From NCBI GenBank assembly GCA_963665845.2, contig OY762492.1:3467895-3531894 (forward strand): a DNA stretch of 64,000 nt, written 5' to 3'. The stretch comes from Candidatus Poribacteria bacterium (GTDB lineage Bacteria; Poribacteria; WGA-4E; GCA-2687025). A program made the translations under genes and the position numbers. The notes under the pieces were generated by a model, which was not told where the DNA came from, ran no database searches, and worked only from the letters and a program-made list of their open reading frames with translations. Position 1 is the stretch's first letter, and each line of letters starts with the position of its first letter. This document shows positions 600 to 57,514 of the stretch, one piece after another.

Positions 600-1469
600 G
601 GTTTTCCATCGCCTGTGGGTCCATAACCATTGCGAAGGGCGCTCTCGGATCAGCTGTTCGAGCCTTGCGTAAATGTTTTGGAGCGTCTCGCGGTCGGAGC
701 CGCCCTGCGGTATCGGTTCAATGAAGACGGCGTGTTTTCCGCCGCCGTTTCTAAACGGGGCGCATAGCAGAAGCGGGCATCCGAGTTTGCGCGACAGCGC
801 CGCCGGGCTGCGCTCCGCCGAGGCGTACCGTCCAAAAAAGAGCGTCGGGGTCCCGTTTGGACCGGCGTCCTGATCGGCGAGAAAGCCGACAGCGCGCCCC
901 TCCCTCAGACCGCGAACCACTTTTTTGAGCGCGCCTTCTCTCGGCGTCAGCTCAAGCCCGGCGCTGGACCGGCAGCGGGCGGCGAGCGCCTCCAGCGACC
1001 GATGCGGCAGCGGCTGCGCAATCGCCATCGGCTTCGGCAAAAACTGCGGGCTAAGCGGCGCGAGTATCTCCCAGTTGCCCGTGTGCGGTATGAAGAGAAC
1101 GACGCCGCGCCCTTTTTCCGCCGCTTTTTCCGCCTCCGTCCGTCCCACAATCTGAACGCGCCTCTGAAAACGCCGCTCCCATTGCGGAAAGAGCAGCAGC
1201 TCCACGATGTTTTGACCCAGATGCCGAAAATGATCGCGGACGATATTTTGACGCTCCGCCGCCGTTTTTTCGGGGAACGCCGCGTCCACGTTTTGCCGCG
1301 CGACGCGCCGCCTTGAACCGAGCGCCGCATGCATCAAACCGCCGATTCGGGCGCCTAAAAAGAGCGCGGCGCCATGCGGCAATCGGCGCGCCGTGAACGC
1401 AAGCGCCAACGCGGCGAACGTCAAAACGGCGTATTGCGCGCGCTTTAGAAACGAACGTTTTTTCAACAT
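576..1469 (-). CDS. Lipid A biosynthesis lauroyl/myristoyl acyltransferase family (LpxL/HtrB-like lysophospholipid acyltransferase)
   Basis: 297-aa ORF with an N-terminal TM helix. It has the HTGNWE catalytic HX4E-type motif (FIPHTGNWEIL) and the downstream LADQD motif typical of LpxL/LpxM/HtrB. ATG start. Confidence 0.8.
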   Translation of the reverse strand: MLKKRSFLKRAQYAVLTFAALALAFTARRLPHGAALFLGARIGGLMHAALGSRRRVARQNVDAAFPEKTAAERQNIVRDHFRHLGQNIVELLLFPQWERRFQRRVQIVGRTEAEKAAEKGRGVVLFIPHTGNWEILAPLSPQFLPKPMAIAQPLPHRSLEALAARCRSSAGLELTPREGALKKVVRGLREGRAVGFLADQDAGPNGTPTLFFGRYASAERSPAALSRKLGCPLLLCAPFRNGGGKHAVFIEPIPQGGSDRETLQNIYARLEQLIRERPSQWLWTHRRWKTEFPSSSP

Positions 1470-1554
1470 CGCTTTATGTTATCATGCATGGCGGCGCGGC
1501 GGCAGCGGCTCCTGTAGGTTGACATCCAGGCGGAAAACGGTTAGCCTCATTCTA

Positions 1555-2106
1555 ATGAAAAACCGCGCCCAGACCCCAATCTACACGATCGGATACGGCA
1601 GCCGCGCTCTGGATGCGTTCATAGAAACGCTGCGCAAATACGGCGCGCAGTATCTCGTTGATGTGCGTTCGGCGCCGTATTCCCGCTATAAGCCTGAATT
1701 TTCCAAACAGCCGCTGGAGCAGGCTCTCCGCCGAGAGGGGCTGCATTATATCTATATGGGCGAGGCGCTGGGCGGCAAGCCGAGGGACAGGTCATATTAT
1801 TATGCGAACGGCAAGGTGAACGATGATCTCCTGCGAAAGGCGGAGTTTTATCAAAAGGGGATCGCGCGGTTGCTGAAGGCGGCTGAACGGGGGCTGACGA
1901 TAGCGGCAATGTGCAGCGAGGAGAAGCCGGAGAGGTGCCACCGCAGCGAGCTGATTGGGGCGTCGCTGAAGGAGAAGGGCGTTGATGTGCGGCATATCGA
2001 CGAAAACGACGCGCTTCTGACGCAAGATCAGGTTGAGGAGCGGTTGAACCCAGGCAGGCAGGGGTTGCTGCCTGGGATAAGCGCGGTTCGGTCGCGCAAG
2101 CGGTAA
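1555..2106 (+). CDS. DUF488 domain protein (YeaO-like), paralog 1
   Basis: ATG at 1555 (MKNRAQTPIYTIGYGSRALDAFIETL...). It has the DUF488 hallmarks: TIGYG at the N-terminus and MCSEEKPERCHRSEL near the C-terminus. The longer track ORF from 1393 is probably an over-extension. Confidence 0.8.
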   Translation: MKNRAQTPIYTIGYGSRALDAFIETLRKYGAQYLVDVRSAPYSRYKPEFSKQPLEQALRREGLHYIYMGEALGGKPRDRSYYYANGKVNDDLLRKAEFYQKGIARLLKAAERGLTIAAMCSEEKPERCHRSELIGASLKEKGVDVRHIDENDALLTQDQVEERLNPGRQGLLPGISAVRSRKR

Positions 2107-2115
2107 CGGTAAAGA

Positions 2116-2613
2116 ATGCGTATGAAGCGTCCAAAGATTGTCACCATCGGCGTTTACGGTTTTGACGAGGAAGGTTTTTTTGAGGCGCTACGCTCCGCGG
2201 GGGTGGATGTTTTCTGCGACATTCGCTTTAGGCGCGGCATGCGCGGCGCAGCCTATGCGTTCGTCAACAGCGTTCGTCTGCGGGAGCGCCTTGACGAAAT
2301 GAAAATCCGTTATCTGCATCGAAAAGACCTTGCGCCGACGCAGGCGGTTCGAGACCGTCAAGCGGAGGAGGACCGCGCCTCTAAAACGGCGAAACGAAAG
2401 CGCGTCCGGCTGGGCGAGGCGTTTATCGAGGCGTACCGCGCTGAATGTCTTGACTCGTTTGATCCGCAAAGTTTACTGGACGATCTTGGGGAAGATGCGC
2501 AGGTCGCGGCGCTGTTTTGCGTTGAGAGGGAACCGAAGGCATGCCACCGTTCCTTGCTGGCGGAGAAGCTGAAGAATGAGCTTGGTCTTGAGGTGAAGCA
2601 TCTTCTGCCATGA
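2116..2613 (+). CDS. DUF488 domain protein, divergent paralog 2
   Basis: MRMKRPKIVTIGVYGFDEEGFFEAL... and FCVEREPKACHRSLLAEKL. It lies 9 nt after paralog 1, and its stop overlaps the next start (ATGA at 2610-2613). Confidence 0.8.
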   Translation: MRMKRPKIVTIGVYGFDEEGFFEALRSAGVDVFCDIRFRRGMRGAAYAFVNSVRLRERLDEMKIRYLHRKDLAPTQAVRDRQAEEDRASKTAKRKRVRLGEAFIEAYRAECLDSFDPQSLLDDLGEDAQVAALFCVEREPKACHRSLLAEKLKNELGLEVKHLLP

Positions 2614-3257
2614 ATTCCGCCATGATGAACGTCAGGCTGTTGATCGCCGCCAAAACGCGAATGAGGAATGGAGTCTGCCTCGGCGCGTTGACAACAAGGG
2701 GGGAGAATCTTCGGTTGATTCCGCCAGGCGAAATCTTCTTTCCCTTTGCGGATGCGGAACAGTTTGAGATCGGGCAGGTCTGGGAGATGACGGTTCAGCG
2801 TGTGAGGTCTGTCAAACCGCCGCATACAGAAGATGTTTTTGTTCATCAAAGAGAGCAAGATCGAACTCTGACAATGGAGGAGACGGAAACCGCAATTGAA
2901 AAGGTGGCGGAGATTGCCGCTGGGCGTTTCAGCGCGCTTTATGACAGGTTGTTGCGACGGACATCTGCGGGATCGCTTTACATATCGAGAGCGGGCGGCG
3001 TTCCGAATTACAGCGTTGGGTTTTGGCGTCCAGACAAGCCGCTGACGCGCTTTCCGACAGGCAACGGGCAGCGTTACCGTTATCCGACATCAATGGGGCC
3101 ATTGAGTTTTAAGTTTGTCGGGTTTCAAGAGCCTATCGAGACGATTCCTGCGGATACGCTGGTTCGCGTTTCGTTGGCGCGCTGGTGGAAACCTGATGAT
3201 CTGGACGTGGAGTTGCGCTGTTACGCGCAAATCTCTGGATGGTACAAAAAACCTTAG
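2610..3257 (+). CDS. Hypothetical protein, translationally coupled to the DUF488 pair
   Basis: 215-aa ORF with an ATGA start/stop overlap with the upstream gene. Its composition looks coding rather than the Arg/Pro/Ala-rich pattern of shadow ORFs. I recognise no catalytic motif. Confidence 0.6.
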   Translation: MNSAMMNVRLLIAAKTRMRNGVCLGALTTRGENLRLIPPGEIFFPFADAEQFEIGQVWEMTVQRVRSVKPPHTEDVFVHQREQDRTLTMEETETAIEKVAEIAAGRFSALYDRLLRRTSAGSLYISRAGGVPNYSVGFWRPDKPLTRFPTGNGQRYRYPTSMGPLSFKFVGFQEPIETIPADTLVRVSLARWWKPDDLDVELRCYAQISGWYKKP

Positions 3258-3721
3258 CAAGCTGATTGGGCGCTACTGACGAAGGCGGGCGTGGAGACGC
3301 TCTTAAGCGGTTCCGTTTCCCCCCGATGATGCGCGTTCAACGCTTCGTCCGCCATATTGCTTAGGAGCGTTTCGGATTCAGGCAGTCGGAACGCCGCGTC
3401 CCATTTTGCGTCGTCCTCCTCGTCTTCCTTTTTGATGCGCGCAAATTCAGCCCCGTATTTTCGGTGGTTCATCAGCTCAGGTTGAAGCGAAACGGCGGCG
3501 CTAAAATCCTCTTCGTAATTGTCCATATCGCCGATTTCTTTGTAGGCTAGTCCGCGGCATATAAACGCAGGGGCGCAGTATCTGTCTTGCTCAATTAGGC
3601 TTTTGAAGCATGCGATCGCGTCCGACCATCGATTTGCCCGCATATATGCGCACCCTAAAAGAGAAAGAGTCCTTGTTTCCATACTCTGGAGTTCCTTGCG
3701 GTCGTCAACGAAAAACTGCAT
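3254..3721 (-). CDS. TPR-repeat protein
   Basis: 155 aa with TPR-like helices (LLGCAYMRANRWSDAIACFKSLIEQD; AFICRGLAYKEIGDMDNYEEDFSAAVSLQPE). ATG start. It converges on the previous gene. Confidence 0.6.
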   Translation of the reverse strand: MQFFVDDRKELQSMETRTLSLLGCAYMRANRWSDAIACFKSLIEQDRYCAPAFICRGLAYKEIGDMDNYEEDFSAAVSLQPELMNHRKYGAEFARIKKEDEEDDAKWDAAFRLPESETLLSNMADEALNAHHRGETEPLKSVSTPAFVSSAQSAC

Positions 3722-3841
3722 TTTTCACTCCGCCTATTCAGCGCGCCGCGGCTGGGATCCCGATAAGGTTTTCATACCTGTCAACATTTCCATACTAGCC
3801 TAACATTAAAATATTCCCGAAGGCAAGCGGGGCGCCTGACC

Positions 3842-4083
3842 GGCAGTCTCTATAGGCGATGGTCTTGATTTTAGAGAGTCGTTTTGGAATGCGGAGGCTG
3901 TCTGGGAAAACTCTGGATTCCCGCTTACGCGGGAATGACGAATAGCCCAATAACAGCGGTTGGGGCGCGGTTTCTGGACTCCCCCCTTGAAAAGGGGGGC
4001 TGGGGGGTTTTAGTTCCGTGCGCGGAATCACGATTAGCATAACTCAAACGGGATTTTCGTCGTCATCGCCTGTAGAGACTGCC
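3842..4083. mobile_element. MITE with IS1-type terminal inverted repeats (type I), flanked by the 8-bp direct repeat GCCTGACC
   Basis: The ends are GGCAGTCTCTATAGGCGATGG (3842-) and CATCGCCTGTAGAGACTGCC (-4083), which are inverted copies of each other and similar to the ends of the IS1 element at 39704-40528. GCCTGACC occurs at both 3834-3841 and 4084-4091. The element carries one ATTCCC-N8-GGGAAT hairpin (3917-3936) and one CCCCCCTTGAAAAGGGGGG hairpin (about 3974-4012). Confidence 0.75.
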
Positions 4084-6605: not shown

Positions 6606-9600
6606 GGCTGGCGCGCTTTTCCGTTAAAAATGTGCTGCTCATCAACCTTGCGATGGCAACGATACTGCTTTTGGGCGCGTATGCGTTTCTGGTACTGCCG
6701 CGCGAGGCGTCCCCCGACATCAACTTCAACTGGGCGTTTGTGACGACGGCGTATCCCGGCGCCGCGCCGATTGAGGTGGAGCAGCTGGTCACGATACCGA
6801 TGGAGGAGGCGATACGCGAGGTGGCGGACGTCAACATGGTCACCTCCACCTCCAGCGAGGGTATCAGTTTTATCAGCGTCAAATTCGCCCAGAACATGTC
6901 GCGCGGCGATTTTGACAAGCGCTTTCAAGACCTTCAAACGAATATACGCGCCGCGGAGGTTCCAGACGGCGCCGAAGACCCGGACATCCGCAAGCTGGAC
7001 ACGCAGGACTGGTGGCCCGTTGTGAGCGTCGCGGTGAGCGGGCAGCTGCCGGAGCCTGTCATGAATCAGATCGCCGAGGATCTGATCGACCTGTATGAGC
7101 AGAACGACGATGTTGGGCAGTTGACCGCCGTCGGAATGCGCGAGCGGGAGATCTGGGTTGAGGTTAACCCAGACGCGATGAACAGCCTCGACATCGGTTT
7201 TCAGAGCGTCGTTCAGGCGCTGGCGGCGCGTAACTTAAACGTGCCGGGCGGAGAGCTGCGCCCCGGCGGACGCGGCGAGTTTCTTGTACGAACGCTCGGC
7301 AAGATCAACGCGCCGGAAGAGGCGCGTCAAGTCATCATCCGAACCGGACCGTCGGGGCGGCAGGTGCGCGTCGGCGATGTGGCTGAGGTGACCGATACCT
7401 TCGAAAAAGCGCGCATGATCTCCCGCATGGACGGCGAACCTTGCATCACGATCAATGTCGCCAAAAAGCGCGGCGCCAGCACCATCAGCGTCGTGGACGA
7501 TGTGCGCGAGCTGACCGCCCGATACGAAGCGGAGCGGCTTGTCCCCGGCGCGCGGCTGGAGATGGTGAACGACTCCTCCGAATATATCATCAACATCATC
7601 GACAAGCTGCAGTCGAACGCCGTCTTCGGCATCGTCTTTGTGACGCTGGCGCTCTGGCTGTTTATCGGCTGGCGGGCGGCGCTGGCGGTCGTCGTCGGCA
7701 TGCCTGTTACTTTCGCCGTCACCTTTATTTTCATGCGCGCGACGGGGCGGTCGCTGGACGGCAACGCGCTCTTTGCGCTGGTGCTGGTCTTGGGAATGAT
7801 CGTCGACCATGCGATCGTCATCGCGGAAAACTGCGTCCGCCATCTACAGATGGACAAGTCGAAGGCGCAGGCGGTCATTGACGGCGTCGGCGAGGTGTTT
7901 CAGCCGGTGCTGGCGGCGACGCTGACGACCATCGCCGCATTTTTGCCGTTGATGCTCATGCCGGGCATCATGGGCGCGTTCATGCGCATCATCCCGCTTG
8001 TGGTGACGCTGGCGCTGGTCGCGTCCAACTTTGAGGCGTTTTTGATCTTGCCCGCGCATGTGATGGACTGGACGAAGCGGCGCGCTCAAGGCGTCCGCGC
8101 CGAAAACCGCTGGTTTCGCGCGGTTCGGCTTCGGTATATGCGCCTGCTGCGGCGGGTCATTCATCGGCGTTATCTGGCGGTGGCGCTGTTTTTGTTGATA
8201 GCGGTCGGAAGCGCGTTTTTACTGCCGCTGGTCGGCGTCCAATTGTTTGAGGGCGACCCGCTCTCCCGTTTCTATGTGCGGGTCTGGATGCCGCTCGGCA
8301 CAAGCCTTGAAACGACCGACGAGACGCTGCGCGAAATTGAAACGATCGCCATGCAGCTTCCCGACACGGACGTCGCGGCGGTCATCTCAACGGCGGGCAT
8401 GCTGCTGGACGACGAAGGGACGCGCGTCGGCGACCGGTATGGACAGGTTCTGGTCGATGTGCCGGACGGTTCAAAAGAGAGCCGACCCATTCCAGAGATT
8501 CTTGCCGACATGCGCATGCGCTGCAGCCGTTTGACAGGGTATGAAAAGATACGGTTCACGATGGACGAGGGCGGACCGCCGACCGGGAAGCCTGTAGAGG
8601 TGAAGGTGAAAGGTCCCGATCTAGATCGGCTGCAGGAGCTGGTGACGGAGCTGAAGGGGGAGCTGGCGTCCATGCCAGGCGTGTACGACATCGGGGACGA
8701 TTTTTCGCCCGGCAAGGAGGAGCTGCGCATCAAGGTGAACGACGAACGGGCGCGGATGCATGGGTTGGACGCGGCGCAGATCGCCATGTTTGTGCGCACC
8801 GCCGTCAACGGGACGACCGCCACCTCCATCCGCGACGGCAACGACGATGTGGATGTGATTGTGAAGGTGAAGGGCGGCGCGGAGTCGCCTCTGGAACGGA
8901 TCAAGAGCCTGCGCATTGCGGCGCCGGGGGGCGGTTCTCTTCCGCTGCGCGAGGCGGCAACCTTTGAGACGGGGCGCGGCTATTCGGACATTCTCCGCTT
9001 TGAATATGAACGCTCCATCACCGTCTTTGCGGAGGTTGACTCGACCATCGCGTCCGCGGTGGCGGTAAACAGGGAGATGGAAAGCAGGTTTGCGAATCTC
9101 GGCAAGCGTTACCCAGGCTACCGTCTCGATTTTCGGGGCGAGTTTGCGGAGTTCAGAGACGCTTTCAACAGCCTTGCGAGTCTGTTTGCGCTGGGCGTTT
9201 TCATCATCTTCCTGCTGCTGACGGCGCAGTTCAAGTCGCTCATACAGCCGTTCATCATTCTCTTCACGATACCGTTTGCGTTTGTCGGCGCGGTCGTCGG
9301 GCTGATTGCGATTCGGGCGCCGTTCAGCATCATGACGCTCTACGGGATCGTCGCGCTGGCGGGCATTGTGGTGAACGACTCGATTGTGCTGATCGACTTC
9401 ATCAACAAGCGGCGTCAAAACGGGGCGGGGCGTTGGCGCGCCGTCATGAAGGGCGGGGCGCTGCGTCTTCGTCCGGTGCTGTTGACCTCCATCACGACGA
9501 TTGCGGGGCTTCTGCCGATGGCGCTCGGAATCGGCGGCGGCTCGGAGGTGTGGGCGCCGCTGGCGAACACGATCGTATGGGGGCTGTCCGCGGCGACGTT

Positions 9601-9721
9601 CATGACGTTGTTTCTCGTCCCGGCGCTGTATGCGATCGCGGACGACGCGGCGGCGTTTCGGCAGCGTCTTCGGGCGCGCCGCCCCGCGCGGTTAGAGGCG
9701 GCGCCCGCCTCGGCAGATTGA
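6602..9721 (+). CDS. Efflux RND transporter permease (AcrB/AcrD/AcrF family)
   Basis: About 1040 aa with a 12-TM RND architecture. MRLARFSVKNVLLINLAMA..., with conserved GMIVDHAIVIAEN and GIVVNDSIVLIDF motifs. The ATG at 6602 forms an ATGA overlap with the adaptor stop. The track start at 6587 is TTG. Confidence 0.9.
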   Translation: MRLARFSVKNVLLINLAMATILLLGAYAFLVLPREASPDINFNWAFVTTAYPGAAPIEVEQLVTIPMEEAIREVADVNMVTSTSSEGISFISVKFAQNMSRGDFDKRFQDLQTNIRAAEVPDGAEDPDIRKLDTQDWWPVVSVAVSGQLPEPVMNQIAEDLIDLYEQNDDVGQLTAVGMREREIWVEVNPDAMNSLDIGFQSVVQALAARNLNVPGGELRPGGRGEFLVRTLGKINAPEEARQVIIRTGPSGRQVRVGDVAEVTDTFEKARMISRMDGEPCITINVAKKRGASTISVVDDVRELTARYEAERLVPGARLEMVNDSSEYIINIIDKLQSNAVFGIVFVTLALWLFIGWRAALAVVVGMPVTFAVTFIFMRATGRSLDGNALFALVLVLGMIVDHAIVIAENCVRHLQMDKSKAQAVIDGVGEVFQPVLAATLTTIAAFLPLMLMPGIMGAFMRIIPLVVTLALVASNFEAFLILPAHVMDWTKRRAQGVRAENRWFRAVRLRYMRLLRRVIHRRYLAVALFLLIAVGSAFLLPLVGVQLFEGDPLSRFYVRVWMPLGTSLETTDETLREIETIAMQLPDTDVAAVISTAGMLLDDEGTRVGDRYGQVLVDVPDGSKESRPIPEILADMRMRCSRLTGYEKIRFTMDEGGPPTGKPVEVKVKGPDLDRLQELVTELKGELASMPGVYDIGDDFSPGKEELRIKVNDERARMHGLDAAQIAMFVRTAVNGTTATSIRDGNDDVDVIVKVKGGAESPLERIKSLRIAAPGGGSLPLREAATFETGRGYSDILRFEYERSITVFAEVDSTIASAVAVNREMESRFANLGKRYPGYRLDFRGEFAEFRDAFNSLASLFALGVFIIFLLLTAQFKSLIQPFIILFTIPFAFVGAVVGLIAIRAPFSIMTLYGIVALAGIVVNDSIVLIDFINKRRQNGAGRWRAVMKGGALRLRPVLLTSITTIAGLLPMALGIGGGSEVWAPLANTIVWGLSAATFMTLFLVPALYAIADDAAAFRQRLRARRPARLEAAPASAD

Positions 9722-9740
9722 CATCGTCAAGCCTCGCGTT

Positions 9741-9982
9741 CTGACCTCTGAATGATCGCTCTATTCATGGGAAAAAGACCCCGCTAACCAAACCGTCCCC
9801 CGCTTCCGCGAGGACATGCATTCCCGCGCAAGCGGGAATCCAGAGTGCCGACAGAAACCGTCCGCGTTTACCCCAAGCGTCCATCTTACACGCCGTCATT
9901 CCCGCGCAAGCGGGAATCTTAGGCGTCGCAGACGCCGTCCATATCGCGTCTCCGATCAACATCATCGTATGAGCGTACTGCC
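9741..9982. repeat. Mosaic repeat block: truncated type II TIR, two ATTCCC-N8-GGGAAT hairpins and a solo IS1-type inverted repeat
   Basis: CTGACCTC fused to TGAATGATCGCTCTATTCATGGGAAAAAG (9741-). Hairpins ATTCCCGCGCAAGCGGGAAT at 9820-9839 and 9898-9917. CATCATCGTATGAGCGTACTGCC at 9957-9982. Confidence 0.7.
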
Positions 9983-10154
9983 GCCCAGCCGTTTTGGATG
10001 CATACCCTCCCCCGCATGTGTTATACTCTAATGCAATCGTTCCGGCTGATGCCGGCGTTACACAGGTTTGCGCACAGGCAACTCGAAAGGAGCGCCGCAT
10101 AGATGAGGTTCCACAGATTCAACATCAGGAGTGTCGCGCACATGAAACTCACAC

Positions 10155-13100
10155 GTGACGTACCCCCCCCCCCCCCCCCCCCCCCCCCGCGCTTGGTCCG
10201 CTGCTCTAGCGGCGGCGCTTCTCTGCGCATGGCTCGTTGCTGAAAACAGCAGCGCGCAACAGGTCCTGACAGGGCATACGGATGATGTCAGGTCCGTGGC
10301 GTATTCGCCGGACGGTCAGACGATCGCCAGCGGCAGCGCCGACGGCACAATCCGCATCTGGAATCCAGCGACGGGCGCGCATGTCCGAACGCTGGAAGAA
10401 AACGAAACCAGAGTTTTCGCTGTGGGCTATTCGCCGGACGGTCAGACGATCGCCAGCGGAAACTTCTACAACACGATAAGCGTCTGGAACGCTCAAACAG
10501 GCGCGCATCTCAAAACCCTGGAAGAGCGCGTGAACGGCGCGAGCGTCTGTAGAGTAGGCGACGTCCTACAGCCCGGAGACAGCTGCTATTATCCGGGAAC
10601 TGACATTGTGATTCGCGCTGAGGGCGGAAGCCTTATCATTGGAGGCGCATCCTTCTCTGGGGCAACCATAAATCTCCAGGGCGTTACCATCGGCGGCGTA
10701 CGCATCTCCATTACTGCCGTACGCGACGGAAATTCTTATAGAATTTCCGGAATTGCGAGCGCGTCCGCTGTCTACTCGGTGTCGTATTCGCCAGACGGAA
10801 CGCGAATTGTCAGCGGCGGCGGCGGCGGCAGCGGCGACGACACGATTCGGATCTGGAACGCCGAGACGGGCGAACTCATACGAACGCTTGAAGGGCATAC
10901 GGGTATTGTCTGGTCTGTGGCGTATTCACCGGACGGTCAGATGATCGCCAGCGGCAGCTGGGACGACATGATTCGGATCTGGAACGCCAACACGGGCGAA
11001 CTCATACGAACGCTTGAAGGGCATACAGATAATGTCTATTCTGTGATGTATTCACCGGACGGTCAGACGATCGCCAGCGGCAGCGCCGACGACACGATTC
11101 GGATCTGGAACGCCAACACGGGAGCGCACATACGAACCCTCCAAGGACATACGAATACAGTCCTTTCTGTCCTTTCTGTGGCATATTCGCCGGATGGTCA
11201 AACGATCGCCAGCGGCAGCGCCGACGACACGATTCGGATCTGGAACGCCAACACGGGAGCGCATCTACGAACCCTCCAGGGACATACGGATGTAGTCCTG
11301 TCCGTGGCCTATTCACCGGACGGTCAGACGATCGCCAGCGGCAGCTGGGACGACACGATCCGCCTCTGGGACATCAGCGACCTCGCCGCTCCTGTAGACC
11401 GCCCAACGGCGACCGTCTCCGGCCCGAGTGAGACGCAAACAGGCGCGTTCGATGTGACCATCGAGTTCAGCTCCGCCGTCACAGGTTTCGAGTCGTCCGA
11501 CATTGTTGTGACGAACGGCTCTGTGACCAATCTTGCCGGCAGCGGCGCATCCTACACGGCAACGATTCAACCGTCCAGCACAGGAGCCGTTACGGTGAGC
11601 GTCCCCGCCAACGCCGCGGGGAACAACACCGCTTCCAACACCTACTCTGTCAACGCTGAAACCGGAGGGCCGCAGGTCCTGACAGGGCATACGGATGATG
11701 TCTTTTCTGTGGCGTATTCTCCGGACGGTCAAACGATCGCCAGCGGCAGCAGGGACGACACGATCCGCATCTGGAACGCCAACACGGGAGCGCACATACG
11801 AACCCTCCAAGGACATACGAATATAGTCCTTTCTGTGGCATATTCGCCGGATGGTCAAACGATCGCCAGCGGCAGCGTCGACGCCACGATTCGGATCTGG
11901 AACGCCAACACGGGAGCGCATCTACGAACCCTCCAGGGACATACGCGTGTAGTCACATCCGTGGCCTATTCACCGAACGGTCAGACGCTTGCCAGCGGCG
12001 GCTTCGACAACACGGTTCGGATTTGGAACGCCAACACGGGAGCGCATCTACGAACCCTCCAGGGACATACGGATCAGGTATGGTCCGTGGCATATTCACC
12101 GGACAGTCAGATGATCGCCAGCGGCAGCGCCGACGCCACGATTCGGATCTGGAACGCCAACACGGGCGAACTCATACGAACGCTTGAAGGGCATACAGAT
12201 TATGTCTATTCTGTGATGTATTCACCGGACGGTCAGACGATCGCCAGCGGCAGCGTCGACGCCACGATTCGGATCTGGAACGCCAACACGGGAGCGCACA
12301 TACGAACCCTCCAAGGACATACGAATACAGTCCTTTCTGTGGCATATTCGCCGGATGGTCAAACGATCGCCAGCGGCAGCTGGGACGACATGATTCGGAT
12401 CTGGAACGCCAACACGGGAGCGCATCTACGAACCCTCCAGGGACATACGGATGGAGTCCTTTCTGTGGCGTATTCGCCGGATGGTCAGACGATCGCCAGC
12501 GGCAGTTACGACGATACGATACGCATCTGGGACATCAGCGACCTCGCCGCTCCTGTAGACGGCCCAACGGCGACCGTCTCCGGCCCGAGCGAGACGCAGA
12601 CAGGCGCGTTCGATGTGACCATCGAGTTCAGCTCCGCCGTCACAGGTTTCGAGTCGTCCGACATCGCTGTGACGAACGGCTCTGTGACCAATCTTGCCGG
12701 CAGCGGCGCAAGCTACACGGCGACGATTCAGCCGTCCAGCTTCGGAGCCTTTACCGTTACGGTGAGCGTTCCCGCCAACGCCGCGGGCAACAGAGCCTCC
12801 AACACCTACACGGTCAACGTTGAAATCGGAGCGCTGCGGGTCCTGACAGGACATACGGACCCGGTCTGGTCTGTGGCGTATTCGCCGGACGGTCAGACGA
12901 TCGCCAGCGGAAGCTCGGACGACACGATACGCATCTGGAACGCCAACACAGGGGAGCCTCTCAGAACCCTCCAGGGACATACGAGTACTGTCAGGTCTGT
13001 GGCGTATTCACCGGACGGTCAGTCGCTCGCCAGCGGCAGCTACGACAACACGATACGCATCTGGAACGCCAACACTGGCGCGCATCTACGAACCCTCCAG

Positions 13101-15491
13101 GGACATACGAATTGGGTCAGGTCTGTGGCATATTCTCCGGACGGTCTGACGATCGCCAGCGGCAGCAACGACAACACGGTTCGGATCTGGAACGCCAACA
13201 CTGGCGCGCATCTACGAACCCTCCAGGGACATACGGGTCAGGTCTGGTCCGTGGCGTATTCACCGGATGGTCAGACGATCGCCAGCGGCAGCGGCAGCGT
13301 CGACAACACGATACGCATCTGGGACGCGAACACGGGAGAGCATCTCCGAACCCTCCGAGGGCAGTCTTGGGTCACCTCTGTGGCATATTCGCCGGACGGT
13401 CAGACGCTCGCCAGCGGCAGCAGAGACCAAGCAAATCCAATTCGGGTCTGGGACGCGAACACGGGAGCGCATCTACGAACCCTCCATGGACATACGAATC
13501 CAATCCTTTCTGTAGCGTATTCACCTGACGGTCAGACGATCGCCAGCGGCAGCGGCGACGACACAATCCGCATCTGGAACGCCAACACAGGGGCGCATCT
13601 ACGAACCCTCCAGGGACATACGGGTACGGTATGGTCCGTGGCGTATTCGCCGGATGGTCAGACGATCGCCAGCGGCAGCTGGGATGAGACGATTCGGATC
13701 TGGGACATCAGCGACCTCGCCGCTCCTGTAGACCGCCCAACGGCGACCGTCTCCGGCCCGAGTGAGACGCAGACAGGCGCGTTCGATGTGACCATCGAGT
13801 TCAGCTCCGCCGTCACAGGTTTCGAGTCGTCCGACATTATTGTGACGAACGGCTCTGTGACCAATCTTGCCGGCAGCGGCGCAAGCTACACGGCAACGAT
13901 TCAACCGACAGGCGATGGCGCTGTTACGGTGAGCGTCCCCGCCAACGCCGCGGGCAACAACACCGCCTCTGACGCCTACTCTGTCAACTACGAACCGCCT
14001 TTGTTTGCGCATACGGGCGGCATTTTAGCGGCGGCGTATTCATCTGACGGAACCCGCATCGCCACCGCCTCCGCGGACGATACGGCGCTCATCTGGGATG
14101 CCGACGCGGAAACGCCGCTCCTTGAACTGACGGAGCATACGGTTGATGTCCGCTCCGCCGCCTTTTCGCCGGACGGAACCATGCTCGCCACCGGCAGCGC
14201 CGACGACACGATACGCCTCTGGAACGCTGAAACGGGCGCGCATATTCGAACGCTGGCGGGACACACGGGCGACGTCTATGCGCTAGACTATTCGCCGGAC
14301 GGCGCGACCATCGTCAGCGCAAGCGGCGACCGTACAGTTCGGCTCTGGAACGCCGAAACCGGGGAGCTTGTCAAGACGATGACGCAGCATGCGGGGGTTG
14401 TTCGGACAGCCGTCTTCTCTCCTGACGGAACGCTCATCGCCAGCGGCGGCGCCGACCGTACCGTGCGCCTCTGGAACGCGCAAACCGGCAAGCTTCTCTC
14501 CACGCTGAAAGAGCATGGGCGGACGATCTACTCGGTCGCCTTTTCACCCGACGGAACGGTTTTGGCAAGCGGCAGCGCCGACAAAACGATTCGTTTTTGG
14601 GATGTTTCGTCGCAGTCGCTTCTCCATACCCGTACGGTGGGCGGGTCTGCGGGTCTCGTGTTTTCGGTCGCCTTTTCGCCGGACGGTTCCACGCTCGCTT
14701 CCGGGAACGAGGATGGGACCGTCCATCTCTGGGCGTCCGGAAACGGCCGGCATAAAGAGACGCTAGAGGGACATACGGGAACCGTTTACGCGGTCGCCTA
14801 TTCGCCCGACGGTCAAACGCTCATCAGCGGAAGCCGCGACAAGACGCTGCGCTTCTGGTCAATGCCGAAGCCCAATCTCGATCTGAACGGCGACGGCGTC
14901 GTGGACGCGGCGGATCTGCAGATGGTCGCCAACAGCTACGGCGGCTCCGATCCGAACGCGGATGTGAACGGGGACGGCGTCGTGGATGTGAACGACGTTC
15001 TGCTGATCGCGGACGCCCTGGCGAACGCGCAGGCGGTCGCGGCGGCTCCGGCGTTGGCGTCGTTGCGGGAGGCGCCGTCCTTTCCGCAGGTGTCCAGCTG
15101 GCTGAACGACGCGAATGGGCTGATTGTCCGCAGCGATTCGGCAAAGCGGGGCATCGCCGTTTTGGAGGAGATGCTTCGGTCATCGCTGCCGGTTGTGTCC
15201 ACCAGCGCGCTTCTGCCGAACTACCCGAACCCGTTCAACCCAGAGACCTGGATCCCGTTTGAGTTGGCGGAAACGTCCCGCGTAAAGTTGACGATCTACA
15301 ACTCATCGGGTCAAACCGTGCGCGTGTTGGAGCTTGGGCAGTTGCCGGCGGGCGCCTACCGCAGCCGCGCCAAAGCCGCCCATTGGGACGGACGGAACAA
15401 TCTGGGCGAACCTGTCGCCAGCGGCATGTATTATGTCCGCATTGAGGCGGGGTCGTTCACGGCGCTGCGGCGCATGGTTGTGCTGAAGTAA
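10155..15491 (+). CDS. Giant secreted WD40-repeat protein with three Ig-like cassettes, dockerin-like repeats and a T9SS-type C-terminal sorting domain
   Basis: Dozens of WD40 blades ([35 protein letters not shown]). Three near-identical cassettes of about 95 aa starting [10 protein letters not shown] at nt 11370, 12531 and 13704. Dockerin/EF-hand-like [13 protein letters not shown]...[14 protein letters not shown]-terminal [19 protein letters not shown]...[10 protein letters not shown]...RMVVLK. The in-frame start as printed is GTG 10155; see the poly-C finding for the start problem. Confidence 0.85.
10163..10188 (+). repeat. Homopolymeric poly-C tract (26 nt) in the 5' end of the giant WD40 gene
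   Basis: Counted directly: an uninterrupted C run from 10163 to 10188. It encodes the Pro8 stretch of the track ORF. Confidence 0.95.
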
Positions 15492-15503
15492 GGCATTTCT
15501 GTT

Positions 15504-15540
15504 TGCGCGGGAGCGCGTTGCCGTTCCCGCGCAAATTTTC
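15504..15540. terminator. Rho-independent-type hairpin between convergent genes
   Basis: TGCGCGGGA (15504-15512) pairs with TCCCGCGCA (15525-15533) and is followed by AATTTT. It lies 13 nt after the WD40 stop and before the convergent MBL gene's end. Confidence 0.55.
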
Positions 15541-15569
15541 CGCGTTCTCATGCCGACATGTCAAGCGCG

Positions 15570-16705: not shown

Positions 16706-16800
16706 TGTCATTCCCGCGTAAGCGGGAATCTTAGGCGCCGCAAACGCTGTCCGCAGCGCTTTAAACCCCCCTAACCCCCCTTTTCAAGGGGGGAATCAGA
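16706..16800. repeat. ATTCCC-N8-GGGAAT hairpin plus C/G-rich hairpin in a divergent promoter region
   Basis: GTCATTCCCGCGTAAGCGGGAATCTTAGG (core 16710-16729) and AAACCCCCCTAACCCCCCTTTTCAAGGGGGGAATCAGAGG (about 16762-16800). Confidence 0.8.
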
Positions 16801-18013: not shown

Positions 18014-19006
18014 TTATGGTCTTTCGGCGCGGTTTCTGCTCAATCGAAACTCTGGATTCTCGTAGAAATCGTATAGATGCTCAATGCCAAGGCGTCTATA
18101 AAGATTTCGAATGGCCAATGCGACTCTTTCTCTCGTTCCTTCGGGACCTGGCGGGAGGGATGGGGACGGAAAGCTGGTAATCCGACTGCCGTGGGTGACG
18201 GGAAGCTCCCCTTGCGCGGAAACCATAAGCGTTTGCATCTCCTGCCGCAGCAAGGCGGCGCGCGAGGCGGCGCTGTCGCGACGCGCCCGGATCCAATTCG
18301 CTTCGAGGTTTAGGAACCGATCCAACTGCTCTGGAGATGGGCGAAAGCCTGTGCGTTTACCGTAATTCATCACGGTTGGCAAGTTCCCAAAATGCTGAAA
18401 CGGTTTTCCCCAGTTGTCTAGTCGTGCTTCGTAAGGCCTCGTTCCGTCTCCGCTCCCTATGGGCGGTTCAAACCCCCAGAAATTTCGATACGATTCCCAG
18501 GTTCTTGGGTCTCGCCAATCGATTTCGAAGGGAGCTATCATTTTGCTTCCTCCCGTTGCTTGGGTCCAATCAATTGAGAGTGGAGGCCCCGTAGGGGTTG
18601 CGCGCGCTGCTTTCAATGATTTCGAATCAACTTTGCGCGTTGTGGTATCCCAATCGGGATTGATACGGTAGGGATTGCCTTGCCGCGTGTAGGCGATCCT
18701 TCCGTACCGTTCGCACCCAGGGGGAATCAAATTTGAGATTTCGCCGCTTGCAGTACCGGCGGCCGCTTTAGCGCTTGTCGCCGTTTCTTCATTCCGGGCG
18801 ATTTCCTCGGCGTTTTCAGGCTTTTCGGCGGGGGCGTCCGGCGTCGTTGCCCGCTCCGTTTTGTCGATCTTGACGACAGGCGACTGGACGAACGTTTCAT
18901 CGGCGGGAATGTCGTTCTCGGCGCTGTTGCGGTATGCCAGCCAGAACGCTCCCGCGATGATGAACGCGAGACCGACCAGCGCTCCTCCGATCGCAACTTT
19001 TTTCAT
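18014..19006 (-). CDS. Hypothetical membrane-anchored protein (tandem paralog A)
   Basis: Start chosen at MKKVAIGGALVGLAFIIAGAFWLAYRNSAENDI (N-terminal TM). Conserved blocks are shared with the next gene (WESYRNFWGFEPP, RTGFRPSPEQLDRF, IEHLYDFYENPEF). Confidence 0.6.
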   Translation of the reverse strand: MKKVAIGGALVGLAFIIAGAFWLAYRNSAENDIPADETFVQSPVVKIDKTERATTPDAPAEKPENAEEIARNEETATSAKAAAGTASGEISNLIPPGCERYGRIAYTRQGNPYRINPDWDTTTRKVDSKSLKAARATPTGPPLSIDWTQATGGSKMIAPFEIDWRDPRTWESYRNFWGFEPPIGSGDGTRPYEARLDNWGKPFQHFGNLPTVMNYGKRTGFRPSPEQLDRFLNLEANWIRARRDSAASRAALLRQEMQTLMVSAQGELPVTHGSRITSFPSPSLPPGPEGTRERVALAIRNLYRRLGIEHLYDFYENPEFRLSRNRAERP

Positions 19007-19083
19007 GGCAAAACCCTTTCGTGTCGCTGCTTGCCTGTCGAGTCGTTTCGCATCGCTTCCGCGTTTCATGTTGGTTGTCTGCG

Positions 19084-20043
19084 TTACTTGCGGTTCTTTC
19101 TGAAATCAGGTTTTTCGTAAAATTCATACAGATGTTCAATGTCCATCCGCTTGTAAAGGTCCCTGATCGCAGCGTCACTGGTTCTTCTTCTGCTTTCACG
19201 GGTTCGTTCCACATTGCCAGTTCCTTGATAGATGATGGCAACAGTCTCGGTATTGGGGAGCATGCCCTGGGCGGAATCCCTGAGATTGCGCATCTTTTGA
19301 CGCAATGCCTCTGCCGCGTCGGAATCGCCAACGAAACGCGCCCGACGCCATTCATCTTCAAGGTTCATATACCGCTCTAACTGCTCAGGGGAGGGTCGAA
19401 AACCAGTCCGTCTGCCATAGTCAATCACGATTGCGGTATTGTCATGCCATTGTATCGGCTTCCCCCAGTTGTCAATCATGGCTCTATAGCGGCTGGAACC
19501 GTTGGGGTTAAAAGGCGGGTCAAAGCCGAAGAAGTTACGGTAAGATTCCCACGCTCTTGGGTCTGTGAAATCAGCTCCTGGCACAAACTTTTTGATCGGA
19601 TCCGATTTTTCCGCTTTCCACCAGGGAAGAGACAGCGGAGGTCCGGTCGGCTCTTCGGCGGCAGCAGCCCACGCGGTCGGATCGTGTATTGACGGCACAG
19701 GACCATACTGATGCGGGTTGATGATGTACTCGTTCCCCTGCCGCGTGATCCCAATCATCTCGCCTTTCTCGTTCGTATAGGCGACGCGCGGCTTCGTTAC
19801 GAGCGGGGGCGCATCTCCATTCGCCGCGGCTTCCGCTTCGCCTTCTGCCGTTTCGGTCGGGGAGTCCTGCGCGCCTTGCTTGGCGGTCGGCGCCTCCTGG
19901 CCGGACTGGACGACGGGCGACTGGACGGGCGTCTCATCAACGGCAATGTCGTTCTCGGCGCTGTTGCGGTATGCCAGCCAGAACGCTACCGCGATAATGA
20001 ACGCGAGACCGACCAGCGCTCCCCCGATGGCAACTTTTTTCAT
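19084..20043 (-). CDS. Hypothetical membrane-anchored protein (tandem paralog B)
   Basis: MKKVAIGGALVGLAFIIAVAFWLAYRNSAENDI... with WESYRNFFGFDPP, RTGFRPSPEQLERY and IEHLYEFYEKPDF. The 5' leader (GAAAGGATTTGCC-ATG-AAAAAAGTTGC) is nearly identical to that of paralog A. Confidence 0.6.
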   Translation of the reverse strand: MKKVAIGGALVGLAFIIAVAFWLAYRNSAENDIAVDETPVQSPVVQSGQEAPTAKQGAQDSPTETAEGEAEAAANGDAPPLVTKPRVAYTNEKGEMIGITRQGNEYIINPHQYGPVPSIHDPTAWAAAAEEPTGPPLSLPWWKAEKSDPIKKFVPGADFTDPRAWESYRNFFGFDPPFNPNGSSRYRAMIDNWGKPIQWHDNTAIVIDYGRRTGFRPSPEQLERYMNLEDEWRRARFVGDSDAAEALRQKMRNLRDSAQGMLPNTETVAIIYQGTGNVERTRESRRRTSDAAIRDLYKRMDIEHLYEFYEKPDFRKNRK

Positions 20044-20156
20044 GGCAAATCCTTTCTTTCGTCCGACGCTTTTATTATAGACCATAATTGCATCCGCTCA
20101 ACTTTAGGCGTATCATGCGTTTCGTTGAAACGCCGCGCATATCGGAAAGGCATGTT

Positions 20157-30029: not shown

Positions 30030-30270
30030 ACAATTCGTCATTCCCGCGCAAGCGGGAATCCAGAGGCGCCGCTGACGACGTCCGCATTCCCCGAAACCGT
30101 CATCCTACCAAACGTCATTCCCGCGCAAGCGGGAATCCAGAGGCGCCGCAGACGGCATCCGCATTCGACGTCATTCCCGCGCAAGCGGGAATCTTAAGGC
30201 ATCGCCGCCGCTCCCGTCCTTTTAAACCCCCCTAACCCCCCTTTCAAGGGGGAATCCAGAGGCGCCGCAT
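30030..30270. repeat. Array of three ATTCCC-N8-GGGAAT hairpin units plus one C/G-rich hairpin (NIME-like mosaic)
   Basis: ATTCCCGCGCAAGCGGGAAT at 30040-30059, 30117-30136 and 30173-30192. Each has the conserved flanks GTC...CCAGAGGCGCCGC. AAACCCCCCTAACCCCCCTTTCAAGGGGGAATCCAGAGG at about 30224-30262. Confidence 0.85.
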
Positions 30271-52239: not shown

Positions 52240-52322
52240 GTCATTCCCGCCCCCTCCTTGTCATTCCCGCCCCCTCCTTGTCATTCCCGCCCCCTCCTCG
52301 TCATTCCCGCGCAAGCGGGAAT
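52240..52322 (+). repeat. Tandem 20-bp repeat (3 copies of TCATTCCCGCCCCCTCCTTG) ending in a complete ATTCCC-N8-GGGAAT hairpin
   Basis: Read directly: TCATTCCCGCCCCCTCCTTG x2, TCATTCCCGCCCCCTCCTCG, then TCATTCCCGCGCAAGCGGGAAT (hairpin core 52303-52322). Confidence 0.85.
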
Positions 52323-57172: not shown

Positions 57173-57514
57173 TTATTTGATGACCAGATTCACGATTACC
57201 ATGACCAGGGGTCCCAGTAGACCAGCCGCAAGCCCGATGATGATAATGCTGCCGGCGATTTTTCCCTCGAGCCGCGCGATGGCTTTTCCATTGTCCAAGA
57301 TGGCTTTTCCATTGTCCAAGATGGCGTTTCTGTTCACCTCAATGGCGTTTTTGTTCGCTTCAATGGCGTTTTTGTTCGCTTCAATGGCGATTCTGTTTTC
57401 CGCGATCGCGCTTCTGTTTTCCGCGATCGCGTCTTCGAGGCGGTCTGCCCGCGCAATGTGGGCGTCAAGTTTTTGGATCAGCGCGTAGAGTTCCCCACTG
57501 ATGTCGTCGTTCAT
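57173..57514 (-). CDS. Tail-anchored coiled-coil protein built from heptad (21-bp) tandem repeats
   Basis: GGAG RBS followed by ATG. AIAENRS AIAENRI AIEANKN AIEANKN AIEVNRN AILDNGK AILDNGK AIARLEG, followed by the C-terminal TM helix SIIIIGLAAGLLGPLVMVIVNLVI. Confidence 0.65.
   Translation of the reverse strand: MNDDISGELYALIQKLDAHIARADRLEDAIAENRSAIAENRIAIEANKNAIEANKNAIEVNRNAILDNGKAILDNGKAIARLEGKIAGSIIIIGLAAGLLGPLVMVIVNLVIK

Follow-up and report, generated by a model that had tools for sequence, protein, structure and literature searches.

A candidate slipped-strand switch formed by a poly-C tract in the signal-peptide region of a strain-specific WD40 gene of Poribacteria

The WD40 gene and its cassette

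We analyzed 64,000 nt of contig OY762492.1 (assembly GCA_963665845.2, positions 3,467,895 to 3,531,894 of the forward strand) from a Candidatus Poribacteria bacterium. Within this stretch, called the window in the following, a gene for a giant WD40 protein carries an uninterrupted run of 26 C (C26) in the region of its putative signal peptide, and this tract is a candidate for a slipped-strand switch of translation. All positions refer to the window, and the features of the WD40 locus described below are located on the + strand.

The open reading frame (ORF) extends from 10155 to 15491 and comprises 1778 amino acids. Scans with Pfam and NCBIfam models revealed about 27 WD40 repeats, three Big_12 domains, which are immunoglobulin-like, a dockerin-like segment and a C-terminal FlgD_ig/Por_Secre_tail sorting domain. 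The C-terminus of the protein scored 33.8 bits with TIGR04183 (Por_Secre_tail, cut-off 23) and 27.5 bits with PF18962 (cut-off 27), and a C-terminal domain of either family is the mark of type A cargo of the type IX secretion system (T9SS). Since a protein with a Por_Secre_tail must cross the inner membrane, an N-terminal signal peptide is needed. A C-terminal tail for Por secretion has been described by Kamke et al. 2014 (PMC3909097) for the WD40 'eukaryote-like' proteins of Poribacteria, and the protein of the window agrees with these in protein class, phylum, putative signal peptide and TIGR04183 tail. The same study found no structural genes of Por secretion in the poribacterial single-cell genomes.

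A comparison of the gene with itself by blast demonstrated an internal tandem triplication at 10825-13990 (nt 671-3834 of the ORF). The repeated module of 1170 nt consists of seven WD40 blades and one Big_12 domain, and the copies are 84-87% identical in nucleotides. For pairs of these internal modules we calculated a ratio of nonsynonymous to synonymous substitution rates (dN/dS) of 0.33-0.38. The GC content at third codon positions (GC3) of the ORF is 0.71, which is within or near the range of the neighboring genes. Because the ORF is intact over 5.3 kb, dN/dS is in this range and GC3 is host-like, the gene looks like one that has been translated under protein-level selection. The first propeller is interrupted by an 82-aa non-WD40 segment at about 10524-10770 (aa ~124-205 of the ORF). 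This insert had no Pfam match, and with NCBIfam only a PAAR-like model appeared below threshold (E = 0.0019, 18 bits, cut-off 124).

The WD40 gene is part of a cassette of 5.84 kb (9725-15564) between an AcrB-type gene and an MBL-cupin gene. The cassette comprises two hairpins resembling repetitive extragenic palindromes (REP), the 5' region of the gene, C26, the WD40 gene itself and a hairpin at the 3' side. For comparison we used the related locus L001, which belongs to a Candidatus Poribacteria metagenome-assembled genome from the sponge Rhopaloeides odorabile and whose AcrB-type gene is 94% identical to the one upstream of the cassette. Using blastn, the window up to 9724 and from 15565 onwards aligned to points only 47 nt apart in L001. 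The same adjacency was found in the loci L155-L158, where the AcrB gene ends at 13120 and the MBL-cupin gene occupies 13176-14216, and the distance between the two genes is 47-55 nt in all five relatives. Relatives with 92-94% identity are thus without the whole WD40 gene, and because AcrB and MBL-cupin adjoin in these five relatives we regard the WD40 gene as a lineage-specific cassette. Neither mobile-element genes nor flanking direct repeats were seen at 9725-15564. The remaining gene content of the window is typical of Poribacteria.

The two REP-like hairpins, TTCCCGCGCAAGCGGGAA, were identified by a pattern scan at 9821-9838 and 9899-9916, upstream of the WD40 gene. Downstream of the stop codon we read from the sequence a hairpin GCGCGGGA...TCCCGCGC followed by AAATTTT (15505-15539), which may act as a terminator; a scan with the terminator consensus did not call it, as its loop exceeds, and its T run falls short of, what the consensus requires. 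A consensus promoter scan near the 5' end of the gene gave no match, and scans of the window for Rfam families and tRNAs were likewise without matches.

Start codons, reading frames and the signal peptide

An earlier note on this DNA had drawn attention to the C26 tract, and direct reading located it at 10163-10188. It is the sole homopolymer of more than 9 nt in the window, and the computed chance expectation for C or G runs of at least 26 nt is 2.7e-9. Upstream of the tract there are two ATG codons in the same frame. ATG 10103 is preceded, as the note had described, by the Shine-Dalgarno-like motif AAAGGAG at 10086-10092 (motif and start codon 10086-10105). A second motif, AGGAG at 10127-10131, which the note had missed, precedes ATG 10142 (10127-10144) and would lead to a product starting with MKLTRDV. 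The spacing is 10 nt in both cases, and Shine-Dalgarno-like motifs are present ahead of many genes of the window. With 26 C the frame of both ATG codons continues through nine prolines, where the note had counted eight, and terminates at TGA 10241-10243 in agreement with the note. The long ORF is in the +1 frame relative to the ATG codons. At this tract length the sole start codon in its frame is GTG 10155-10157, for which no Shine-Dalgarno motif could be detected 5-12 nt upstream, and the frame analysis therefore bears out the claim that the ORF can be entered only from a GTG without an obvious ribosome binding site. The third frame is closed by a TGA at 10156-10158 directly 5' of the tract.

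The tract separates the start codons from the main part of the ORF, so that each change in the number of units alters the reading frame with a period of three. To describe this dependence, the locus was rebuilt in silico with tract lengths of 0-4 and 22-30. Whenever the length was 1 mod 3, both ATG codons with their Shine-Dalgarno motifs were joined to the full ORF; the loss of one C or the gain of two would thus fuse the ATG codons to the WD40 ORF, as had been claimed. With 2 mod 3, including the assembled 26, GTG 10155 was the sole entry. In the case of 0 mod 3, none of the three starts yielded a long product, because the third frame contains the TGA just before the tract. C26 is translated into 8-9 prolines, which are located between the n-region of the signal peptide and its hydrophobic h-region.

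The C-terminal 500 aa of the protein have homologues with 77-84% identity in other Poribacteria, which are located in other genomic contexts. For the N-terminal part no close relative was present in the protein collection, and a query with the N-terminal 244 aa resulted only in generic WD40 matches of at most 60% identity. The 5' ends of four homologous genes encode short classical signal peptides (MTRPLRSVMFRLFCWTAPLLFAGIFNQNSQAQTVKTLAGHT, MKTRRPSLSRILPTLAALFGLTLIAQNSPAQPIRTLGGDHT, MSRLASAFFAALCFAVFAGFLAHKSQAQTPQTLIRHT and MRIRYWHILAASLLAALFAQNSQAQLERTLAGHT). These follow a common design consisting of a short n-region, an h-region and the motifs (Q/E)NS.AQ and TL.GHT, and in an alignment no sequence deviated at the S, A and Q of the cleavage motif or at the L and HT after it. 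The gene of the window fits this design only if it is read from ATG 10142 through the tract (MKLTRDV, proline run, RAWSAAL...), that is, at 1 mod 3; at C26 the signal peptide is read from the GTG only. Behind the proline codons the remainder of the signal peptide is encoded at 10188-10256 and, according to the translation and the alignment with the homologues, comprises an R, the h-region and the c-region ENSSA with a predicted cleavage before QQ. Charge and size of the n-region from ATG 10142 agree with the homologous signal peptides, whereas with the upstream in-frame alternative ATG 10103 the tract would be preceded by an n-region of 20 aa, which is not typical of the homologues. As the four homologues have signal peptides of the same design without a tract, ATG 10142 is probably the native start.

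Together with the Por_Secre_tail, these homologous signal peptides support the claim of a surface or secreted protein with a signal-peptide-like h-region. In the comparison with the genes of relatives, which the note had proposed, the four poribacterial homologues share the signal-peptide design, and their 5' ends contain neither a C run nor a proline run. Judged by this alignment, the tract is not a conserved coding feature but was inserted or expanded in the n-region specifically in this lineage. A programmed ribosomal frameshift at the tract was also considered and rejected, since the tract is absent from the homologues and no Rfam family was matched in the window.

The same data bear on the question of whether the poly-C run links two unrelated pieces of DNA. 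The note had raised such a false join, and a general suspicion toward long homopolymers is the sole argument in its favor. The tract is internal and not at a contig end, and the genes on both sides are syntenic with AcrB at the left and MBL-cupin at the right adjoining in the five relatives. The REP-like hairpin with the pattern TTCCCGCG(C/T)AAGCGGGAA has 22 matches at about 17 distinct sites of the window, compared with 0.29 expected, and these are found left and right of the tract. In addition, the left flank provides the Shine-Dalgarno motif, the ATG and the n-region, and the right flank the h-region and c-region of a single homologue-like signal peptide, and GC3 of the ORF agrees with that of the neighbors. 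The synteny, the REP family on both sides and the one signal peptide assembled from both flanks effectively refute the false join, and we consider a chimera to be extremely improbable.

A candidate three-state switch and its alternatives

With 26 nt the tract is well above the length of about 8 nt from which homopolymers are counted as hypermutable simple sequence repeats, and it is placed where it alters the reading frame. Slipped-strand mispairing should often add units to such a long homopolymer or remove them. The product also corresponds to that of contingency loci, which typically encode proteins that are surface-exposed, secreted or active in host interaction, in having a signal peptide of homologue-like design and a Por_Secre_tail. 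Our confidence is evenly divided on the reading that a strain-specific gene for an exported WD40 protein contains a real, very long poly-C repeat in its signal-peptide region and that this repeat is a candidate slipped-strand switch with three states. According to this model, slipped-strand mispairing during replication would change the size of the tract, and slippage of the RNA polymerase, for which the run exceeds the RNA:DNA hybrid, may add further variation. The size would then determine from which start codon the 5.3 kb ORF is read. At 1 mod 3 (such as 25 or 28 C), ATG 10142 would be coupled to the full protein (MKLTRDV-prolines-RAWSAAL..., ON); at 2 mod 3, as in the assembled 26, only the GTG 10155 without Shine-Dalgarno motif would be available (weak state), and at 0 mod 3 there would be no long product (OFF). 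The population would consist of a mixture of cells that display the WD40 protein at the surface or secrete it and cells that do not. A hypermutable tract, a heterogeneous population and expression that differs from state to state are our inferences in this model. The slipped-strand ON/OFF layout suggested in the earlier note stood as far as the arrangement is concerned, with the tract in the signal-peptide region and the ATG codons out of frame. Its two-state form may have to be extended to three states, because the GTG frame still encodes a plausible signal peptide.

Several points weigh against the reading as a switch. The GTG-frame product retains a plausible signal peptide even in the weak state, and the switch may therefore be leaky. 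None of the homologues possesses a shorter version of the tract, so that there is no sign among them of mutability selected over time. The homopolymers of well-studied contingency loci are mostly 8-20 nt long, and a run of 26 nt is beyond this range, which raises the prior for an artefact or an error in size. Neither GTDB genomes nor JGI metagenomes nor the protein collection yielded a sequence of the same species, in which a different tract length could be read. A pattern of both flanks with a variable gap had no match in GTDB genomes or JGI metagenomes, and a metagenome scan with the AcrB C-terminus and the unique N-terminal insert of the WD40 protein revealed no close relative (best 76%), the insert being unmatched. 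Exact look-ups of the WD40 protein (with V or M as start), the MBL-cupin protein, the GFO protein and a TIM-barrel protein were also without a match. Finally, the tract is probably real, but its exact size is not reliable within 1-2 nt, and the assembled OFF-like 26 is therefore not to be trusted.

This last point follows from the way in which the contig was probably produced. The AcrB protein of the window is on record from a contig of 3,950,614 bp, and a contig of 3.95 Mb implies long reads spanning the tract. Related contigs carry metaMDBG-style names, and sponge projects of this kind use PacBio HiFi reads with metaMDBG (PMC13224822). From the contig size and the names of the relatives' contigs we infer the same origin for the contig of the window, a further reservation about the switch. 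The assembler metaMDBG compresses homopolymers, their size is set by consensus polishing, and the errors left over are mostly in homopolymers (PMC11392814). The run itself is therefore credible, but its exact size is not. About 600 kb of related loci contain hardly any homopolymers of at least 9 nt, and the tract is therefore not part of a general assembly noise.

A mis-called size would mean that the tract in truth has an in-frame modal length, such as 25 or 28, and that the gene is simply expressed with a polyproline stretch in its signal peptide and slippage of no biological consequence. We regard this as unlikely. It is in line with the homopolymer errors left by long-read assemblers, the contig of 3.95 Mb and the fact that one C fewer restores an ATG linked to a Shine-Dalgarno motif. 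It also agrees with the related contig L159, in which many genes are split by frameshifts. In L159 the AcrB gene is distributed over three ORFs (1-2413) and the WD40 homologue over two (8274-11893; 576 and 630 aa with a 4-nt overlap). This points to a frameshift-rich assembly and calls for caution in reading single frameshifts as biology in such datasets. On the other hand, from general knowledge of slipped-strand mispairing a homopolymer of 25-28 nt should be unstable, which makes a uniform population unlikely even with a modal length that is in frame. Moreover, where other genes of the window have counterparts in relatives, they are nearly complete, to within about one residue, and the quality of the consensus in the window looks high.

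The tract as a whole could also be an artefact, with a real genome that lacks a long C run and has perhaps a single C, giving a clean MKLTRDVRAWSAAL... signal peptide. A single C indeed puts the gene in frame and makes it much like the homologues, from all of which the tract is absent. Long G/C homopolymers in public metagenome contigs are mostly artefacts located at contig ends, and about four fifths of the listed IMG/VR matches to C24 were at the ends of loci; this C24 scan is a rough baseline and does not settle the reality of the tract. Related short-read data from sponges were obtained with two-color Illumina machines (PMC8163846). Poly-G tails at the 3' ends of reads, however, should give dead-end tips and not internal tracts, and 26 nt is below the usual final k-mer. 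The tract is internal with flanks that are unique and biologically coherent, there is no second tract of this kind in the window, and the 3.95 Mb contig implies long reads. To our knowledge there is no mechanism in long-read chemistry that inserts 25 C. An artefact is in our view quite improbable.

A third alternative accepts the tract but not adaptive switching: the expansion of the tract would have frameshifted a strain-specific accessory gene, which was recently inactivated and is now decaying. The absence of the cassette from five close relatives indicates that the gene is dispensable, its good start codons are out of frame as assembled, and homologues are called in fragments in other assemblies. 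This fragmentation is at least partly due to scaffold gaps and error-rich contigs, and the ORF of the window is free of stop codons over 5.3 kb with a dN/dS of its modules that fits a gene under constraint. A frameshift in a 26-nt homopolymer would also revert readily, and an inactivation that is reversible is in practice phase variation. We therefore give little credence to a decaying gene.

The proposed switch shares features with several known systems. In Neisseria, pilC reportedly contains a poly-G tract in the region coding for the signal peptide. The two loci are alike in that a homopolymer is located in the signal-peptide part of a gene for a surface or host-interaction protein, where a change of one nt more or less turns translation on or off. 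They differ in that the Neisseria tracts are about 10-17 nt long with switching shown by experiment, whereas the 26-nt tract is a candidate switch and belongs to an uncultivated sponge symbiont and a WD40 product with a T9SS-type tail. The lic1 locus of Haemophilus influenzae is said to combine (CAAT)n repeats with alternative start codons. There the repeat number selects the in-frame start and leads to strong, weak or no expression, the same three-state logic as predicted for the WD40 gene, but with a tetranucleotide in place of a homopolymer and with expression that was measured and not only predicted. In insect endosymbionts, transcriptional slippage at long poly-A tracts reportedly rescues frameshifted genes. 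In both cases a host-associated bacterium has a long homopolymer within coding sequence, and RNA slippage could provide some in-frame mRNA of the WD40 gene at any size of the DNA tract. In the endosymbionts the runs consist of A/T, measure about 10 nt and belong to reduced genomes rich in AT, in contrast to the possible slippage on a C/G run considered here, which is less well documented. Poly-C tracts are found in the promoters of the Bordetella fim genes. The promoter of opc in Neisseria meningitidis contains a poly-C tract as well (PMC3960869). As is proposed for the WD40 gene, a variable poly-C run controls a surface protein in both, but there the tract affects promoter spacing and transcription, whereas in the window it is located 3' of the Shine-Dalgarno motif and the ATG and would act on the reading frame. 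In a search of the full-text literature we came across neither sponge symbionts with phase variation mediated by repeats nor a description of such a switch for poribacterial WD40 proteins.

With somewhat more doubt than confidence, we suggest that no contingency locus has been described before in a sponge symbiont and that this would be the first, a hypermutable poly-C tract working as a three-state translational switch (ATG with Shine-Dalgarno motif, weak GTG, off) for a strain-specific giant WD40 protein that would be displayed stochastically within one host. Eukaryote-like repeat proteins are the leading candidates for the dealings of sponge symbionts with their host, and their regulation is undescribed. 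If the proposal is true, stochastic display could vary the recognition by host cells or phages, and bet-hedging with surface proteins, mainly known from pathogens, would also occur in an obligate mutualist of an early-branching animal. The tract size in long reads would then be a simple marker of expression states in uncultivated populations. In the case of a size error or an artefact, the finding would be a warning concerning homopolymers in long-read metagenome-assembled genomes.

Repeat elements and neighboring features of the window

The REP-like hairpins upstream of the WD40 gene belong to an intergenic family. Copies in the window are located at 3918, 9821, 9899, 16711, 30041, 30118, 30174, 40623, 44620, 44971, 52304, 52453, 54689 and 56844, among others. 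Those at 9821, 9899 and 16711 are in segments missing from the 92%-identical L001, which means that the elements vary between close lineages. A similar REP pair is present upstream of the WD40 homologue in L159 (7545-8100).

Tandem repeats were also observed. At 52240-52310 a 20-nt repeat, GTCATTCCCGCCCCCTCCTT, is present in 3.5 copies and adjoins a REP copy, and a block of 21-nt tandem repeats extends from 57278 to 57436. L159 contains a similar 'gtcattcccgc...' repeat at 7500-7545. In addition, the short C-rich direct repeat AACCCCCCT, in two units each, is present at two places, 16764-16781 and 30225-30242, both near a REP copy, and in L159 a related C9/C6 motif is accompanied by a G-rich partner at 7776-7800. 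C-rich runs seem to be part of the repeat elements of this lineage. An origin of the C26 tract from a C-rich REP-associated element was considered and rejected, as the flanks of the tract hold no other part of such an element.

Next to each other on the - strand are an ORF of 351 aa at 18014-19069 and an ORF of 333 aa at 19084-20085. A Pfam scan of one of them gave no match. Both share the N-terminal segment KKGFAMKKVAIGGALVGLAFIIA, which suggests that the pair arose by a tandem duplication.

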